This document shows, piece by piece, positions 1 to 42,997 of a stretch of DNA of 64,000 nt (position 1 is the first letter of the stretch; each line of letters begins with the position of its first letter). The position numbers and the translations under genes are program-made. The notes under the pieces were generated by a model that saw only the letters and a program-made list of their open reading frames with translations, ran no database searches and had not been told where the DNA came from. Source of the DNA: Bacteroidales bacterium (lineage in GTDB: Bacteria; Bacteroidota; Bacteroidia; Bacteroidales; WCHB1-69); contig JAFYNM010000009.1 in the NCBI GenBank assembly GCA_017549765.1, forward strand, positions 8,390 to 72,389. The letters are read 5' to 3'.

Positions 1-1439
1 TACTCATAATAATTACCACTGTCATTAAATCCTTTATTTCCTTCTCGATCTATAGTTCGGATGTCGCAATAACCTGTTGGAGGAGTTGTTGATTGATCGT
101 ATAAAGCATAGCCTCCAAATGCAACCACATTTAAATCTGAACTATAATTTGAGTAAAGTCCGTGCAACCCGTCACCTTGAATAGCACCCACCGATATAAC
201 TCGAGGAATGGTTCCTATAAAATTGATAGAATCATTCTTAAAATCATTTCCTGAAGAAGCTATGACAACACACCCTTTATTGTTGCGCCCGTTATCTAAT
301 GCCATTTTAAAGGCATCCTGAACTTGTTGAGATTTGTTTTTTTTATGCCCCCAAGAATTGTTGAGAATATCAGCCTCGTAGAGTTCCCATGCTTTACGTA
401 TCCCTTTGGCAATTCGTTTGTTATTCATGTAGTCTGTCTTTGGATCGCCACTTATTATATTGACTATTTTTTGGATTCTTATGGGTACTATTCTTGAATT
501 TTGGTCAATTCCAACAATACCCTTTCCATTATTAGGAGTTGCCGCTACTATACCAGCACAGCATTGGCCGTGAGCATGTAAAAATTTTGGACGACCATGG
601 TTAATGGCAGGATAACCATTCAAAACCTTGCTATTTCCCTCTGACATTAGATCTTCATGATCTTCTACTCCATCGTCTATGATAGCAACTTTTGTTGACA
701 CTGTAGATAACGAAGAAACTAAAGACCAAGCTTCCAAAACTTTTAAATCAAAACCTGAAACACATTGAAAATTACTTCCATCAACTAATGAAACACTTTG
801 TCCTGTGTTATGCAAATAGTATTGTTTACTATACAAAGGGTCATTATAATGATTTTCATAACTACAATAATAATCCGGCTCGGCAAAGACAAAAAGTCCT
901 GATTCAAACAACCTTTTAGCAAGAGAAATAACCGTGTTTTCGTCAGGACAAAGAATTGTTAAATACAGAGCGTCCTCCAATGTAACACTAACATTGCTGT
1001 ATTCATTGATAATAGAAATAGCAGAAGATATGAGATTTATACTCTTTATTTTTGCCACAACCTCATTCCTTAACCACACTCGTTCTCCATCCAAATTTTT
1101 AGAATAGGAATAATATATAACTTTTTCAGGGTGATTATTTGTAACTGATTTGATGACACTGTCAATGTGGTAACAAGACAAAGACCTATTCGTAACTATT
1201 ATATTGTCGTCCTCATCAGAATATGATACTTCGGCTTGCCCGGAAAAATAAAGATATAAATTATTACATATATTTCTAATATCTCCTGTGTCTGCAAGAA
1301 TTATGTTCACTGACATAGAGTCATCAGTAAAATATTGAGCTGTTCCATTGTAATAATAAAACTTGCTGTTTTGAGCAAGAATAGATTCCCCTGCAAAAAG
1401 AATCAGCGAAAGAAAACAAATATAAGCTAACCTACTCAT
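1..1439 (-). CDS. S8 (subtilisin-like) serine peptidase, N-terminal ~479 codons; the C-terminus lies beyond the window start
   Basis: Open frame from the ATG at 1439. It is absent from the supplied track because it has no stop inside the window. My translation gives MSRLAYICFLSLILFAGESILAQ (signal peptide), then VAIIDDGVEDHEDL (Asp box), HAHGQCCAGIVAA (His box) and NNSWG/ASSGN. The catalytic Ser region is not reached. I spot-checked the frame at 1-60, 541-720 and 1321-1440. Confidence 0.75.
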   Translation of the reverse strand, partial: MSRLAYICFLSLILFAGESILAQNSKFYYYNGTAQYFTDDSMSVNIILADTGDIRNICNNLYLYFSGQAEVSYSDEDDNIIVTNRSLSCYHIDSVIKSVTNNHPEKVIYYSYSKNLDGERVWLRNEVVAKIKSINLISSAISIINEYSNVSVTLEDALYLTILCPDENTVISLAKRLFESGLFVFAEPDYYCSYENHYNDPLYSKQYYLHNTGQSVSLVDGSNFQCVSGFDLKVLEAWSLVSSLSTVSTKVAIIDDGVEDHEDLMSEGNSKVLNGYPAINHGRPKFLHAHGQCCAGIVAATPNNGKGIVGIDQNSRIVPIRIQKIVNIISGDPKTDYMNNKRIAKGIRKAWELYEADILNNSWGHKKNKSQQVQDAFKMALDNGRNNKGCVVIASSGNDFKNDSINFIGTIPRVISVGAIQGDGLHGLYSNYSSDLNVVAFGGYALYDQSTTPPTGYCDIRTIDREGNKGFNDSGNYYE

Positions 1440-1442
1440 ATC

Positions 1443-1814
1443 TTAAATTTTTTCTATACACAATATTTTGGAGGGTTCCAAATAGATTTCAACGTGAAAG
1501 TTTACAAAACGTTCTAGCGTACAGTGTACTCTAACCGGATTGTTTGGAGTTAACGTAAACTCCTTTGGAATGTATCCTTTTACTGGATAAAAAGCAAAGG
1601 TTGCTTCAATGAATTGACTATGAAGTAAAACATAACATGCTGAATCAATGTCCAAGTTGGGCTTTTCGGGTATAAAGAAACCTGCCACTTTCCCTCTCGG
1701 TTCCTCTAAATACAGCCAATAACCATTCTCACCGTATTCACATTGTTTATGTCTAGAGCAACAGGTTAGTAAAACTAATAATAGAATGGACAGAATAAAC
1801 ATTAATTTTTTCAT
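1443..1814 (-). CDS. small hypothetical lipoprotein, 3 nt upstream of the S8 peptidase gene
   Basis: Internal start MKKLMFILSILLLVLLTCCS has a signal peptide with a lipobox-like Cys. The track ORF 1443..1859 carries an unlikely N-terminal extension. The sequence is AT-rich like the peptidase gene. I recognise no family. Confidence 0.55.
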   Translation of the reverse strand: MKKLMFILSILLLVLLTCCSRHKQCEYGENGYWLYLEEPRGKVAGFFIPEKPNLDIDSACYVLLHSQFIEATFAFYPVKGYIPKEFTLTPNNPVRVHCTLERFVNFHVEIYLEPSKILCIEKI

Positions 1815-1888
1815 ATTCTTTTTATTTTTAAAATGAATAATAATATTTCCTTTCAACATTTCTACAAATCATCGCACCTACGTTCCTC

Positions 1889-2386
1889 TCACTCGTTCGT
1901 GTACAGCTGTTCTTCGGTGATGGACAGGCCGGTGAAGGTGAACTGAAGGGTGGTGTTGTCGCGGTAAACCAACTGTGCGGGGATGTTGAGGAAGACGCGG
2001 TTTTCGTCCTCGTCCACATAGTTGAGCGAGCGTGCCGGCATGTTGAAGAAGTCCTCCGAGGTCAGCCCGAAGGTGTCCACCGTCGTGGCCACAAGGTCTG
2101 CGCCGACCTCCTGCAGCTGGACCGCCGCGGCGGTCGCACAATAGTTGCCGTCTCCCATGCAGTTCACATGTATTAGCCTTCCGTCATCCATTACACAACC
2201 ATTACAGTATCTCCCGTCGTGGCCAATACTCAACATAAGGATTGTCGAGTTTTCCGCTCTCGTATTGCCGTAAATGGTTATCACCCGGTTTGGGGATAGC
2301 TCCAGCGAAGATGTTCGAAGATCCTCATTCTCACACGCGCCCAGTAATGATGCCAAGAGAATGCTCAATGCCATTAATTTTTTCAT
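1889..2386 (-). CDS. hypothetical lipoprotein with a Cys-rich central segment
   Basis: MKKLMALSILLASLLGAC is a lipoprotein signal. The segment CNGCVMDDGRLIHVNCMGDGNYC is Cys-rich. It is the first gene of a minus-strand operon with the two genes to its left. Confidence 0.6.
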   Translation of the reverse strand: MKKLMALSILLASLLGACENEDLRTSSLELSPNRVITIYGNTRAENSTILMLSIGHDGRYCNGCVMDDGRLIHVNCMGDGNYCATAAAVQLQEVGADLVATTVDTFGLTSEDFFNMPARSLNYVDEDENRVFLNIPAQLVYRDNTTLQFTFTGLSITEEQLYTNE

Positions 2387-2429: not shown

Positions 2430-2437
2430 CAAAAATA
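2430..2437 (-). promoter_or_regulatory. Bacteroidota -7 box (TATTTTTG on the minus strand), proximal promoter of the lipoprotein/S8 operon
   Basis: The plus strand reads CAAAAATA, the reverse complement of TAnnTTTG. It lies ~41 nt upstream of the ATG at 2386. Confidence 0.5.
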
Positions 2438-2506: not shown

Positions 2507-2515
2507 GGGGGGGGG
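2507..2515. repeat. G9/C9 homopolymer tract in the divergent promoter region
   Basis: Counted directly: tgatatGGGGGGGGGtatct. Confidence 0.95.
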
Positions 2516-2647
2516 TATCTTCACACACTATTTATTTGTTTATCAATATAATATATGATTGTGTGATTGTGGAGGCAAGAAGGAATATTTATTGCTTCTT
2601 AAGGGTGCTTTAGGAATAAAAAGTGAAAAAGGGAGGGTTTTATTTTA

Positions 2648-2681: not shown

Positions 2682-3764
2682 ATGAAACACATGCATACGG
2701 CTGTCGCCGTTTTATTGAATGTCCTTTTCTGCGCCGCACTGCTCTGGTTCTTCACCACAAACAGCTACCTGCGTCCCTACGCCGGCAGTGCCACCAAAGA
2801 GATCCTGGCTGCGCTGCCGCTGTTGGCATCCCTATATGCCAACTACTTTCTCCTATACCCGACATTGTACAGAAAAAGCAGAATTCCATACTGGATAACG
2901 GTGGTGGCCTTCTGTTTTGTCGCCGCGTGTCTGGATCTGGCTATCGCCTACCCGAACATAGCCCAGCGCAATGCCTTCCTTATAGAGAATGTCGGAGTCC
3001 CTCGTTTTGTTTCCAAGCATGTTCTCTTCTTATTAGGAAGGAACCTTGCATTCAACTTCTTCCCCTTCATGATTCAGGAAAGGCGGCAGTCGCAGGAGGC
3101 CTTGTCGGCTGAAGCGGCGATTGTGTACCGTGATGTCCGGCTGTTGGATGTTGTCGACGCAGAACATAATCTGTTTCTTATCCCTAAGAGCGACATTTAC
3201 TATTGTGTGCAAGATGGAAACTTCACCCGTATCTATGTGACAAAGGGCAATTTTTGCTACACGCGCAACGGCCCCATGAAACATCTTGAGCAACTCTTCG
3301 GGAAAGAGGATTTTGTCCGTATCTCCCCAAAGGTGTTGCTTCCATACCAGTACATTAGGTCTTGCCAGGGTGATGAGGTGTTCATGAAAAAGATGCCTTG
3401 GGCAGACACACCAATTTCTTTCAAGATAGAAGACCGGGACAAAGACCGGGTATCCGAGATCATCACTTTGAAACTTCATTTCGCCAAAAACCAAAGGAAT
3501 GGTGTAGGCCACAGCCCGTCACGCCGAAAACAGAAGCCCATCAAGCCTTCCCCCGAGAAGAAAGAGACGGTCCTCCGGCAGATCCGGAAACAACCGGGCA
3601 GCAGGGCCAATGCGATCGCCGAGCAGACTCAATACTCGTCGAGCACCGTGGAGCGCTGCCTTTCCGAACTCCGCAAACAGGGCCTCGTGGAGTTCCGCGG
3701 CTCCAAGAAGAAGGGGGGATACTTTGTGGTGGGAAGGGAGGAAAAGGTGATGAATAAAAGTTAA
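2682..3764 (+). CDS. membrane-anchored LytTR-domain protein with an extra C-terminal winged-helix HTH (paralog 1)
   Basis: The start is chosen at MKHMHTAVAVLLNVLFCAALLWFF because the track start 2559 is a TTG upstream of the promoter box. There are about four hydrophobic helices. The LytTR core is LFLIPKSDIYYCVQDGNFTRIYV...FVRISPKVLLPYQYI. A basic linker leads to the wHTH STVERCLSELRKQGLVEFRGSKKKGGYFVV. Confidence 0.75.
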   Translation: MKHMHTAVAVLLNVLFCAALLWFFTTNSYLRPYAGSATKEILAALPLLASLYANYFLLYPTLYRKSRIPYWITVVAFCFVAACLDLAIAYPNIAQRNAFLIENVGVPRFVSKHVLFLLGRNLAFNFFPFMIQERRQSQEALSAEAAIVYRDVRLLDVVDAEHNLFLIPKSDIYYCVQDGNFTRIYVTKGNFCYTRNGPMKHLEQLFGKEDFVRISPKVLLPYQYIRSCQGDEVFMKKMPWADTPISFKIEDRDKDRVSEIITLKLHFAKNQRNGVGHSPSRRKQKPIKPSPEKKETVLRQIRKQPGSRANAIAEQTQYSSSTVERCLSELRKQGLVEFRGSKKKGGYFVVGREEKVMNKS

Positions 3765-31927: not shown

Positions 31928-32329
31928 TCACAGTTTCATCACCTTTCCCGTCTGCACGCTGCCGTTGCGGAGAGTGGTTCGTACCATATAGACGCCTGCG
32001 GGCAGGTAGCCTACATGGATGTTGGCGGTAGTGCCTTCCGGGGACAGAGTGGCCACCAGCTTGCCAAACACATCGTAGAGCTCCACGCGGGAAATATTGT
32101 CCGATGAGATCTCCACGGTGAGCACCTCGCCGACAGGGTTGGGGTAGAGCGTGATGGCTTTAGGATCCCTCTCCACTTCCATCACACCAGAAATATGTTC
32201 CATCTCAACCAAAAATATGACGCCTGTGCTTATATAAATTTCTAACACTTTAAAACACAATAACATAATCAAGCATATAATTATATTTTGAGATGGAACA
32301 AAACAGGTTTTGAGAAGGTTCATGCGCAT
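31928..32329 (-). CDS. mini-ORF consisting essentially of a T9SS C-terminal sorting domain only (possible gene remnant)
   Basis: The C-terminal ~75 aa ITLYPNPVGEVLTVEISSDNISRVELYDVFGKLVA...GVYMVRT is a canonical type-A CTD. The upstream ~55 codons are AT-rich, with a sharp composition break near 32205. No cargo domain is present. Confidence 0.5.
   Translation of the reverse strand: MRMNLLKTCFVPSQNIIICLIMLLCFKVLEIYISTGVIFLVEMEHISGVMEVERDPKAITLYPNPVGEVLTVEISSDNISRVELYDVFGKLVATLSPEGTTANIHVGYLPAGVYMVRTTLRNGSVQTGKVMKL
32210..32217 (-). promoter_or_regulatory. -7 box TATTTTTG inside the mini-ORF, directly before the in-frame ATG at 32203
   Basis: The plus strand reads CAAAAATA. Use of this box would give a signal-less ~91-aa CTD-only product. 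Confidence 0.3.
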
Positions 32330-32394: not shown

Positions 32395-33456
32395 ATGAAG
32401 AAAAAGAACACCTTCCTTTCCGTCTTGCTGAATGTTGTCTTCTGCGCCGCCCTGCTCTGGGTTTTCACCCGGAACTCGTTCCTGCGCCCCTTCTCCGGCA
32501 GCCAGACAAGGGAGTTCCTCATGGGTGTTGTCCTGCTGGGAATCCTTTACGCCAACTTTTTCCTGCTGTATCCGAAATTGTACGGAAGGCACCCTGTTCT
32601 ATACTGTGCCGTGGTGGCAGCGGTTTCTCTCTTGTCAGGCCTCTTGGAGATAGCGGTAGCGCACAAGAACATCGAATCATGCTGCGCACCCGTCATCCAG
32701 GCTTTTGGACCCTTCAACTACTACGCCAAGGTGATCCTCTTTGTTGCCGGTCGGAACCTTGCTTTCAATCTTTTCCCGTTCCTGTTACGGGAGAGGCAGC
32801 ATCTCCGGCAAGACTTGGACGAGGAAATACAGGTCGTCTATAAGGAGGCCAGGATGCTTGACGTCATCGATACAAACAGAGCTAAAAAATGCCACCTCGT
32901 TCCCATTGACGACATCTATTATTGTGAACAGAGCGGGAACTTCACCTCCGTCCACATGGTGCAAGACAACTGTTACACCCGGCTCGGTTCCATGCGGCAT
33001 CTGGAACAGCTCGTCGGGACAGACAACTTCATCCGCATATCCTCTTCCCTGCTGCTCCCCTACCGCCACATCAAGTCATGCAACGGCAGCGAGGTGTTTA
33101 TGAAGAAAACTCCTTGGATAAAAGATCCTGGGACTTTCAAGATAGATCCAAAATCTTGCCAAGAGGTTTCCGAGGCCATCTTCCTACACTTTCAGGAGGT
33201 CAAAATTCTAAAAAAAAGGGAAATGATGGAGCGGGCCAGAAAGAAACGGAACCCGATCAAGCCCTCCCCCGAGAAGATCGAGACGGTTCTCCTGCAAATC
33301 CAGAGACAGCCCGGATGCAGGGCCAATGGAATCGCCGACCAGACCCAATACTCACTCAGCACGGTGGAGCGCTGCCTTTCCGAACTGCGCAAGCGGGGCC
33401 TCGTTGAGTTCCGCGGCTCCAAGAAGAAAGGAGGATATTGGGTAGTTGAGAGTTAA
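32395..33456 (+). CDS. membrane-anchored LytTR-domain protein with a C-terminal winged-helix HTH (paralog 2)
   Basis: Same architecture as 2682..3764: VLLNVVFCAALLWVFTRNSFLRP, RNLAFNLFPFLLRERQ, LytTR core HLVPIDDIYYCEQSGNFTSVHM...FIRISSSLLLPYRHI, and wHTH STVERCLSELRKRGLVEFRGSKKKGGYWVV. Confidence 0.78.
   Translation: MKKKNTFLSVLLNVVFCAALLWVFTRNSFLRPFSGSQTREFLMGVVLLGILYANFFLLYPKLYGRHPVLYCAVVAAVSLLSGLLEIAVAHKNIESCCAPVIQAFGPFNYYAKVILFVAGRNLAFNLFPFLLRERQHLRQDLDEEIQVVYKEARMLDVIDTNRAKKCHLVPIDDIYYCEQSGNFTSVHMVQDNCYTRLGSMRHLEQLVGTDNFIRISSSLLLPYRHIKSCNGSEVFMKKTPWIKDPGTFKIDPKSCQEVSEAIFLHFQEVKILKKREMMERARKKRNPIKPSPEKIETVLLQIQRQPGCRANGIADQTQYSLSTVERCLSELRKRGLVEFRGSKKKGGYWVVES
33257..33436 (+). repeat. 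180-nt segment ~85% identical (153/180 by hand alignment) to 3541-3720, the wHTH-coding ends of the two paralogs
   Basis: Aligned by eye block by block. The longest identical run includes gtggagcgctgcctttccgaact. Confidence 0.85.
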
Positions 33457-42235: not shown

Positions 42236-42997
42236 ATGAAAAACACCATCATCGCATCTGTATTAGTAAAGAAAGAAGAGACGGCAAATTTGCTAAAAGA
42301 TTTATTGTCAAAATTTTCGTGCTGTCAGAAGGTCTCTGTACTCTCGAATCTGGAAGAAGCGCTAGAATACCTGAACCAGGGTGAATGTACGCTGCTGTTC
42401 ATAGATGAAGATTATTTGAATGTGCTATACACTACGCACAAACCCGTGTTTATAGTCCCGATTTGCACGAAAATGAATATAAGTAAGATAAAAAAGCTGA
42501 TGAAAACGGGCTGTTTTGACATTCTGCTGCAAGATAATCTCACCGCCCAATTGAAGATTATTTTAGGGAAGATCATCAATATACACACACACTACTCTCC
42601 AGGATCGCATAACAGCGAAGTGGTTTCCGACCGGGAACTGGAATACAATGCCTCTATAGCCAGATTTATATTTACGGAAGAATCCATCTTTCTGCCACCC
42701 ACAAAACAAGAACCGGCAGTCAGAATTCTATTGAAAGAAATACTGTTCATAGAACTGATCGAAAACAAAATACATTTTATCATGGAAAATGGAGAGATTT
42801 ACGAACGGAGAAAATCGCTCAAATACTTCATCCAAAGACTTCCTGACAATATGTTTCAGAAGATAAACCAGAAAACAATAATCAATGTTCAAAATATCGA
42901 CCAGATAACCCGAGGTGATATCTGTAGAATAAAAGATTACTCATTCAAAATAACCCGTTCGTTTAAATCGAACTTGAAAAGCAAACTACCCCTATAA
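42236..42997 (+). CDS. orphan LytTR-family regulator with a degenerate receiver-like N-terminal domain
   Basis: The C-terminal LytTR is ILLKEILFIELIENKIHFIMENGEIYE...MFQKINQKTIINVQNI. The N-terminal CheY-like fold lacks the acidic pair (VLVKKEE) and the conserved Lys (ILLQD). No kinase gene is nearby. Confidence 0.7.
   Translation: MKNTIIASVLVKKEETANLLKDLLSKFSCCQKVSVLSNLEEALEYLNQGECTLLFIDEDYLNVLYTTHKPVFIVPICTKMNISKIKKLMKTGCFDILLQDNLTAQLKIILGKIINIHTHYSPGSHNSEVVSDRELEYNASIARFIFTEESIFLPPTKQEPAVRILLKEILFIELIENKIHFIMENGEIYERRKSLKYFIQRLPDNMFQKINQKTIINVQNIDQITRGDICRIKDYSFKITRSFKSNLKSKLPL

Follow-up and report, generated by a model that had tools for sequence, protein, structure and literature searches.

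Two LytTR–winged-helix membrane proteins of a Bacteroidales genome, candidate regulators of divergent secreted-protein genes

Why should a probable one-component regulator that is fixed in the membrane carry two domains of DNA-binding type? The question is raised by two paralogous genes in a 64,000-nucleotide stretch of a Bacteroidales genome (the window; C28:8390-72389 of genome G000, 2.45 Mb in 36 contigs), each of which encodes four transmembrane (TM) helices followed by a LytTR domain, a basic linker and a C-terminal winged helix-turn-helix (wHTH). The gene at 32395..33456 is referred to here as paralog B (P0001) and that at 2682..3764 as paralog A (P0002). The answer favored below is that A and B are probably membrane-resident, auto-activating one-component regulators of a divergent secreted-protein operon, which would act through mirrored pairs of direct repeats, while the contribution of the second domain is the part of the scheme that is most readily explained in another way.

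Domain anatomy and spread of the family

A preliminary description, made from the DNA letters, had assigned A and B one architecture lacking both receiver and kinase, and this is upheld by Pfam, NCBIfam, an AlphaFold2 (AF2) model and Foldseek. A full-length alignment of the two proteins shows 53% identity (187/352, E 2e-129), and their parts are arranged as follows.

32395..33456, + strand: paralog B gene, 353 aa, encoding TM module, LytTR domain, basic linker and wHTH
32395-32787, + strand: TM module of B, residues 1-131 (hydropathy and AF2 model)
Residues up to 151, + strand: predicted signaling helix of B, continuous with TM4 (AF2 model)
32854-33141, + strand: beta-rich LytTR domain of B, residues 154-249 (Pfam and AF2 model)
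Residues 252-282, + strand: predicted long helix of B (AF2 model)
Residues 283-291, + strand: basic linker of B (sequence)
33268-33444, + strand: wHTH of B, three helices and a wing, residues 292-350 (Pfam and AF2 model)
2682..3764, + strand: paralog A gene, 360 aa, architecture as in paralog B

The LytTR profile (PF04397, gathering score 22.6) scores 37.4 bits (residues 165-230) and 24.8 bits (residues 163-231) in the two proteins, the match spanning profile positions 2-68 of 98. The C-terminal segment is a wHTH by profile in both paralogs and by fold in the model: at residues ~297-340, HTH_24 scores 22.2 and 25.2 bits (cut-off 21.9) and HTH_IclR 22.3 and 26.4 bits (cut-off 22), and the Pfam MarR_2 score falls marginally under its threshold. 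The AF2 model was built from a 47-sequence alignment and has a mean predicted local distance difference test score (pLDDT) of 84.9. When compared by Foldseek, its beta domain matches the ten-stranded fold of AgrA (4xqj; TM-score 0.79, root-mean-square deviation 2.6), 3d6w and ComE (4cbv), and its last domain matches the winged helices of MarR, ArsR, MecI and Zalpha, with TM-scores up to 0.85. A basic linker is found in both paralogs (RKKRNPIKPSPEK and RRKQKPIKPSPEK).

Hydropathy reveals four hydrophobic segments (4-28, 39-63, 66-91 and 113-131), and the model begins with four long helices, the fourth of which is predicted to extend to residue 151. The even number of TM helices places both DNA-binding-type domains in the cytoplasm and leaves only short loops facing outward. 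The membrane module had earlier been likened to that of LytS, a resemblance that is not borne out: residues 1-150 have no Pfam match at E<=1, and the likeness was rejected as unsupported after hhalign comparison with five PF06580 kinases from related Bacteroidales genomes, a small kinase sample, gave a probability of 1.2%. The sole hint of kinase likeness is one 9-bit local match to one kinase at the TM2-TM3 turn. Neither a receiver (Response_reg) nor a kinase domain was detected in A or B by Pfam or NCBIfam, the NCBIfam scan added no specific family for either protein, and no PF06580 (LytS-type) kinase occurs in the whole genome. Lacking a receiver and such a kinase, A and B fall outside the LytR/AgrA-type response regulators as these are defined. 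The genome encodes eight LytTR proteins or domains in total, and the third one noticed earlier in the window, at 42236..42997, is real: its product is a soluble protein of 253 aa without a winged helix, the N-terminal half of which has no Pfam receiver match.

Six related copies are present in this genome, with A and B in the window and the others outside it. A third A-like copy (L002, G000:C3:1010-2068; the C3 copy) has a TAA codon in frame at the position of a Tyr in A (…YTRI*VTKG…) and is thus a pseudogene or an assembly error. A distant full-length copy of the same architecture but 27% identity lies ~5 kb upstream of the window, and another copy is truncated by the end of contig C14. The last, L006 (G000:C35:4623-5357), is a 263-aa protein with four TM helices and LytTR, without the winged helix, whose TM and LytTR part aligns to residues 1-249 of B (E 1.7e-14). 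L006 faces a 319-aa protein with a C-terminal sorting domain (CTD) of the type IX secretion system (T9SS), and its spacer contains a perfect 19-bp tandem duplication (ATTATGACGAAATTATGCC twice) ~125 nt before the ATG.

Beyond this genome, a word-indexed search returned >300 homologues of 350-420 aa, and when 1.84 billion cluster representatives were scanned exhaustively with HMMER, only 367 had E<=1e-3 and 154 had E<=1e-10, with many full-length matches of 23-30% identity among them. The 80 loci drawn from species-representative genomes all belong to metagenome-assembled genomes (MAGs) of uncultured Bacteroidales/Bacteroidetes, one of them labeled Prevotella sp., and originate from rumen, other ruminant gut sites, horse faeces and one Hadza human sample. 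When the phylogenetic distribution of the fusion was surveyed, 48/55 genomes of the window's genus were positive, with 1-10 copies each, as were 96/151 genomes and 13/22 genera of its GTDB family (E<=1e-10). An even sample across the order, with scoring limited to six candidates per genome in many cases, yielded matches in only 2/301 Bacteroidales genomes; one is the genome studied here, and the match in the other is without the winged-helix part. The family is narrow, lineage-restricted and multi-copy, its hosts being uncultured Bacteroidales of rumen and hindgut. Sister genera also contain tandem arrays in which two or three family genes follow one another (G436:C108:10281-15854, G438:C36:39929-42874; L066, L057).

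Divergent partners and control regions

The gene pairing was assessed by calling open reading frames (ORFs) at all loci, taking as divergent partner an ORF that is 110 aa or longer and no more than 700 bp away, and judging secretion by a simple heuristic. A divergent ORF is present in 75 of 84 full-length relatives, and 67 of the 75 begin with a signal-peptide-like segment, 31 having a lipobox. The divergent placement beside secreted-protein genes, originally pointed out for A and B, thus holds family-wide. Downstream of the regulator, no conserved HdrM-like partner was found across the 84 loci; the downstream genes are mutually unrelated and convergent in 55 of the 84, so that the regulator is apparently monocistronic and without such a partner.

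These intergenic spacers contain the elements through which the regulators would act. Sixty-four family spacers were aligned and cut to 48 non-redundant ones, in which conserved blocks lie between unalignable flanks. A search for two TGTGAGGG boxes, 20-25 bp apart and with at most two mismatches in total, identified a pair directed at the regulator in 22/48 spacers, at the target in 16 and in both directions in 11, compared with 0.01 for shuffled sequence. The pairs are direct repeats with a period of 21-24 bp. On the regulator side, the first box lies ~101-103 or 139-141 nt before the ATG and the second ends 37-42 nt upstream of a TATCTTTG -7 box, while target-side pairs have a 21-bp period, start mostly ~84-105 nt before the target's ATG and are accompanied by AAATRTGAACCC, which is found twice with a period of 21-22 bp. 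Where boxes depart from the consensus, both members of a pair tend to vary alike (TGCGAGGG, TGTGAGAG and TGTGAAGG, each present twice; TTGAGAWGG twice in B). A central palindrome, TTGA-N3-TCAA (in full ATATTGA-N3-TCAATAT), lies upstream of the regulator-side pair at a distance of ~40 bp; exact copies occur in 6/48 spacers (0.48 expected), and 26/48 have it when one mismatch is allowed (9.9 expected). Between the target-side repeats and the palindrome, 23/64 spacers, with all partner types, contain a G7-G11 tract in a fixed place. Its length varies among near-identical loci (L032 G7, L033 G11 and L025, L034 and L035 G10; L036 G8 vs L037 G9; L050 G8 vs L054 G10), which looks like slipped-strand phase variation. 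The layout of the spacers fits what has been published for an auto-activating LytTR regulator.

At loci A and B, for which L007, an orthologue 72% identical to B, was used for comparison, the corresponding elements are these.

2430..2437, - strand: putative -7 box of the lipoprotein operon, TATTTTTG, within the conserved family block GGCAAAAATAC
2474-2485 and 2496-2507, + strand: A target-side direct repeats AAATGTGTTACC and AAATATGATATG, 22-bp period, matching the family AAATRTGAACCC (AAATRTGA) pair
2507..2515, + strand: A G9 tract, corresponding to the family G7-G11 tract
2536..2546, + strand: A palindrome TTGTTTATCAA, one mismatch to TTGA-N3-TCAA
2648..2655, + strand: putative -7 box of A, TATTTTTG, ending 26 nt before the ATG
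32190-32201 and 32212-32223, + strand: B target-side direct repeats GAAATATGTTCC and AAAATATGACGC, 22-bp period, conserved in L007
32286-32299 and 32308-32321, + strand: B regulator-side direct repeats TTTTGAGATGGAAC and TTTTGAGAAGGTTC, 22-bp period, a TGTGAGGG variant conserved in L007
32361..32368, + strand: putative -7 box of B, TACTTTTG, ending 26 nt before the ATG

Direct repeats upstream of the regulator's own promoter are therefore present in the family and, as a variant, at B; they are degenerate at A. The equal promoter-to-ATG spacing claimed earlier for the two genes is confirmed by the positions of their putative -7 boxes. A TTG start for A at 2559 was rejected, since the -7 box would fall inside the ORF and homologues begin at MK..., corresponding to 2682.

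The partner of A belongs to the commonest type in the family, a lipoprotein of ~165 aa.

1889..2386, - strand: lipoprotein gene, A's divergent neighbor, 165 aa, lipobox LLGAC
1443..1859, - strand: secreted protein gene, 138 aa, downstream of the lipoprotein gene
3..1439, - strand: S8 subtilase gene, downstream of the lipoprotein gene and extending beyond the window

Lipoproteins of this type have four invariant Cys besides the lipid-anchor Cys, an invariant His73 and a nearly invariant His56 (alignment A5); the family motif is GH..C.GC......H..C.G.G..C. No Pfam or NCBIfam family describes them, the AF2 model is poor (pLDDT 63.6), and Foldseek returned nothing below E 0.2. They are better conserved than the regulators, with 49% identity where regulators share 27%. 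In this genome, a lipoprotein paralogue lies opposite each of three regulator copies (A, the C3 copy and the distant copy), and the C3 lipoprotein gene is a mosaic of the A type and the distant-copy type. Other partners include 903-aa proteins with fn3 domains and a T9SS-CTD and fn3-rich secreted proteins of ~1200 aa. In several relatives, the lipoprotein gene is followed at its 3' side by small double-glycine-leader ORFs, one of which passes the bacteriocin_sig model, and then by radical-SAM/SPASM peptide maturases (L025:1146-2770, L018:1183-2484, L085:2326-2852, L021:2583-2843). A maturase matches CefB-like models at E 1e-43, under the equivalog cut-offs. Such lipoprotein-leader-maturase loci are possibly a new type of cluster for peptides made on the ribosome and modified after translation (RiPPs) under LytTR control.

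The situation at B is different from that first described. Its supposed partner is the following ORF.

31928..32329, - strand: T9SS-CTD ORF, 133 aa, consisting of a sorting domain only (residues 61-126)

This ORF lacks a signal peptide and overlies, with its first ~50 codons, the conserved operator repeats. In L007, the gene of a signal-peptide protein begins just past the repeats, and the same place in the window is occupied by T9SS sorting-domain sequence. Given the operator overlap and this comparison, the 133-aa ORF is most plausibly what remains of the 3' end of a cargo gene that was deleted, with B having lost its neighboring target. The earlier statement that both genes stand beside genes for secreted proteins is thus correct for A, with its lipoprotein/S8 operon, and the CTD ORF does exist; however, the "orphan" is evidently what a deletion left lying over the operators.

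Proposed mechanism and its alternatives

From the anatomy and distribution of the family, its gene pairing and the positions of the repeats, we infer the following course of regulation. The compact four-helix module, in which only short loops face outward and polar residues are conserved (N13, E40, Y52, N54 and R120-N121), would sense a signal at the level of the membrane or envelope, which the helix continuous with TM4 would pass to the cytoplasmic LytTR domain, behind which lie the basic linker and wHTH. The regulator would bind the direct-repeat pairs, whose period is about two helical turns, before its own promoter and, likewise, the mirrored repeats before the divergent promoter. Binding would turn on both promoters, leading to positive feedback and switching on a cargo operon for secreted or surface proteins, namely the lipoprotein and S8 protease in the window and, elsewhere, a T9SS fn3 protein or a lipoprotein with double-glycine-leader ORFs and a radical-SAM peptide maturase. 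This auto-activating, membrane-bound model has precedents. LytTR regulators are known to bind repeats of this kind and to activate themselves; LRS-like genes of Bacteroides are preceded by similar repeats (PMC6193735), and HigX shows that promoters can be governed from the membrane by a 4TM-LytTR protein (PMC13384398).

Several observations weigh against this model. The conservation of spacer elements among related MAGs reflects shared ancestry in part, the 48 spacers being counted without correction for phylogeny. The regulator-side boxes of A are degenerate, yet conserved with the C3 copy, and locus B carries variant rather than consensus repeats; a genome-wide scan for the consensus TGTGAGGG pair gave six matches, none of them at the family loci of this genome. 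With its target destroyed, B may control nothing but its own gene, or may act at other places. The site of HigX is an inverted repeat and its effect is a different one (PMC13384398), which implies that the site rules of LytTR proteins are not uniform. Finally, the winged helix would most likely read the central palindrome between the two sets of repeats, and this assignment is the weakest step of the model.

The history of the winged helix bears directly on that step. The preliminary description had noted that the wHTH-coding ends of A and B are conserved far beyond the sensor parts, and the similarity is real (86% DNA identity). In codon-aligned sliding windows, the DNA identity of A and B is 42-72% in the body and 81-86% in the last ~70 codons. 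B and the C3 copy are 41-68% identical in the body and 97-99% identical from codon ~285, i.e., over the last ~70 codons only, whereas A and the C3 copy share ~80% in the body and ~80% at the end; the distant copy and the C14 fragment converge at the very end only. Among 84 members, compared in 43 pairs within genomes and 3443 between them, the identity of the wHTH goes with that of the body, such that bodies 45-55% identical are joined to wHTHs 51-52% identical, within and between genomes alike, and the A-B pair is an outlier at about +5 standard deviations. The tracking of body by wHTH, the position of the A-B pair and the nearly identical ends of B and the C3 copy together indicate that local gene conversion in this genome, and not stronger constraint, produced the highly similar ends. 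That winged helices evolve in concert within genomes as a general rule was considered and rejected, because only A-B and two tandem pairs (wHTH 80% vs body 59-62% identity) stand out.

The module also occurs on other proteins, as had been suggested for the C-termini of AlbA_2/HATPase_c_4 (RecG-like) proteins: P0234 (HATPase_c_4 and HTH_24) is 46% identical to the wHTH, and a neighbor at locus L066, composed of SLFN_AlbA_2 and HATPase_c_4, ends in ...RGSKKTGGYY. The 581-aa protein P0202 is a tandem series of about eight such winged helices.

These facts bear on the likeliest alternative, in which the winged helix is a partner-binding, ligand-binding or oligomerization module, LytTR alone contacts the operators, and the palindrome serves another factor. 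The domain is minimal (~60 residues), without the dimerization helices of MarR; it has been shuffled onto unrelated proteins and swapped by gene conversion between paralogues with different bodies, an exchange that would be easier if the wHTH does not set promoter specificity; and the enrichment of the palindrome is far weaker than that of the direct repeats. On the other hand, residues of the recognition helix (S322, T323, V324, R326 and C327) and wing (G346, G347 and Y348) are invariant or nearly so, a strongly basic linker stands just before the domain, and the palindrome is conserved at a fixed distance from the repeats. A winged helix that does not read DNA is accordingly a possibility to be taken seriously, though not the one preferred, and it may equally apply to the AlbA_2/HATPase_c_4 proteins with the same type of domain.

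A second alternative reverses the sign of regulation: the repeats would be operators at which the protein holds both divergent promoters off until a membrane signal removes it. The target-side repeat nearest the promoter abuts the -33 region, one-component membrane regulators of both signs exist, and HigX is negative on some promoters (PMC13384398). Against this, the second regulator-side repeat ends 37-42 nt before the -7 box, a position that lies upstream of the core promoter and is shared with LytTR systems that activate themselves; repression is considered unlikely. A third proposes a latent factor held at the membrane, from which a signal would release the LytTR-wHTH part by proteolysis, in the manner of regulated intramembrane proteolysis. 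The exposed helix at residues 131-151 and the flexible basic linker could, judging from the model, offer cleavage sites, and fragments lacking TM segments are found among database copies. However, the truncated database matches come mainly from short contigs, no protease gene is conserved beside the family, and HigX is found only in the membrane fraction and depends on its membrane domain both to be stable and to be active (PMC13384398), all of which makes release a decidedly improbable mechanism. The least credible explanation, that the repeats and palindrome are structural promoter elements or are bound by an unlinked factor, the pairing being that of a co-inherited duplicated cassette, can draw on the fact that cassettes duplicate and recombine as units, but the regulator is the only gene common to all spacers, whose targets differ (lipoprotein, T9SS fn3, other secreted proteins), and variant repeats accompany variant regulators.

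A broader and distinctly speculative reading would treat the loci of the family as self-contained, exchangeable and possibly phase-variable cassettes for surface proteins or modified peptides, driven by a two-headed membrane factor. LytTR would then read cassette-specific repeats at both promoters and the winged helix the family-constant palindrome. Slippage in the G7-G11 tract would shift the helical phasing of the palindrome and target-side repeats and so switch the cargo operon on or off, leaving auto-regulation untouched. The membrane module might even sense the product of its cargo, such as the Cys-rich lipoprotein or a double-glycine-leader peptide, in a quorum-like circuit made of one protein.

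Relation to known systems

Literature searches revealed no published description of a LytTR-wHTH fusion, and the architecture corresponds to no characterized family. The one-component design had also been called unusual, which is true of the second domain, for which these searches gave no precedent, but not of the membrane-anchored LytTR protein as such, which is already known from HigX (PMC13384398) and the LRS-like regulators (PMC6193735). HigX provided the first experimental case of a membrane-bound LytTR factor in 2026. The present family adds to it a second DNA-binding-type domain and regular, mirrored operators, from which clear predictions follow on the box that each domain would bind and on whether the state depends on the length of the poly-G tract. 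With up to 10 copies per genome in abundant, uncultured Bacteroidales of the rumen and hindgut, it may be a main layer of control over the cell surface and peptide natural products of these bacteria (T9SS proteins, Cys-rich lipoprotein, radical-SAM clusters).

HigX and the LRS-like regulators of Bacteroides come nearest among known systems; neither has the winged helix. HigX of Caulobacter crescentus (PLoS Genet 2026) is a membrane-located protein of the 4TM-LytTR type, with targets determined by chromatin immunoprecipitation sequencing and a TM part that is required (PMC13384398). Its likeness to A and B is one of architecture: four N-terminal TM helices without a periplasmic domain, then LytTR, in one polypeptide that contains no receiver or kinase. 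HigX acts as a transcription factor from the membrane at envelope-related promoters (PMC13384398), as is proposed for A and B. It differs in having no C-terminal winged helix, an 8-bp inverted-repeat site and induction by the SOS response, and it is single-copy and alpha-proteobacterial, whereas the A/B family is expanded. The Bacteroides genes Btheta7330_RS19915 and Bovatus_RS21375, which encode LRS-like multi-TM LytTR proteins, were described in silico only (Zou et al. 2018, PMC6193735). They are preceded by 11-bp repeats with 11-bp spacers, located 11 bp upstream of TGTA-19-TATCTTTG (PMC6193735). With A and B they share the order Bacteroidales, TM segments before LytTR, a 22-bp repeat period before the promoter and predicted auto-activation; they differ in following an NfeD/DUF2154 membrane protein gene within an operon and in lacking the winged helix. 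The A/B family, in contrast, is monocistronic, with a divergent cargo operon, mirrored repeats, a palindrome and a poly-G tract.

Among LytTR regulatory systems (LRS) proper, whose regulators bind 9-bp repeats with 12-bp spacers before their own promoters (PMC6193735), HdrRM and BrsRM of Streptococcus mutans combine a LytTR regulator with membrane control that does not involve phosphorylation, direct repeats at their own promoters and positive feedback, in which A and B would resemble them, and their targets include bacteriocin-type genes, to which those of the A/B family are likened. HdrRM and BrsRM consist of a soluble regulator and a separate membrane inhibitor, whereas A and B have a fused membrane part and a second DNA-binding-type domain. 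Because the regulator itself is membrane-anchored and there is no separate inhibitor, A and B lie outside the LRS definition of the HdrRM type. AgrA of Staphylococcus aureus shares the LytTR fold (TM-score 0.79) and, at P2/P3, binds direct-repeat pairs with a 12-13 bp spacer before two divergent promoters, one of which is that of its own operon, a layout like that of A and B; unlike them, it is a phosphorylated response regulator with a receiver and the kinase AgrC. BcrR of Enterococcus faecalis, ToxR and CadC are likewise one-component, membrane-bound DNA-binding sensors, and BcrR, with four TM helices as well, detects its ligand within the membrane. All three differ in having a single N-terminal DNA-binding domain (XRE or OmpR-type), and ToxR and CadC also in combining one TM helix with a periplasmic sensor domain. 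A published census of transmembrane regulators found Bacteroidota to be enriched. No regulator of that census, nor HigX, nor the Bacteroides TM-LytTR genes, has a second DNA-binding-type domain. A and B thus fit the fused TM-LytTR kind of regulator, to which they add an extra module.

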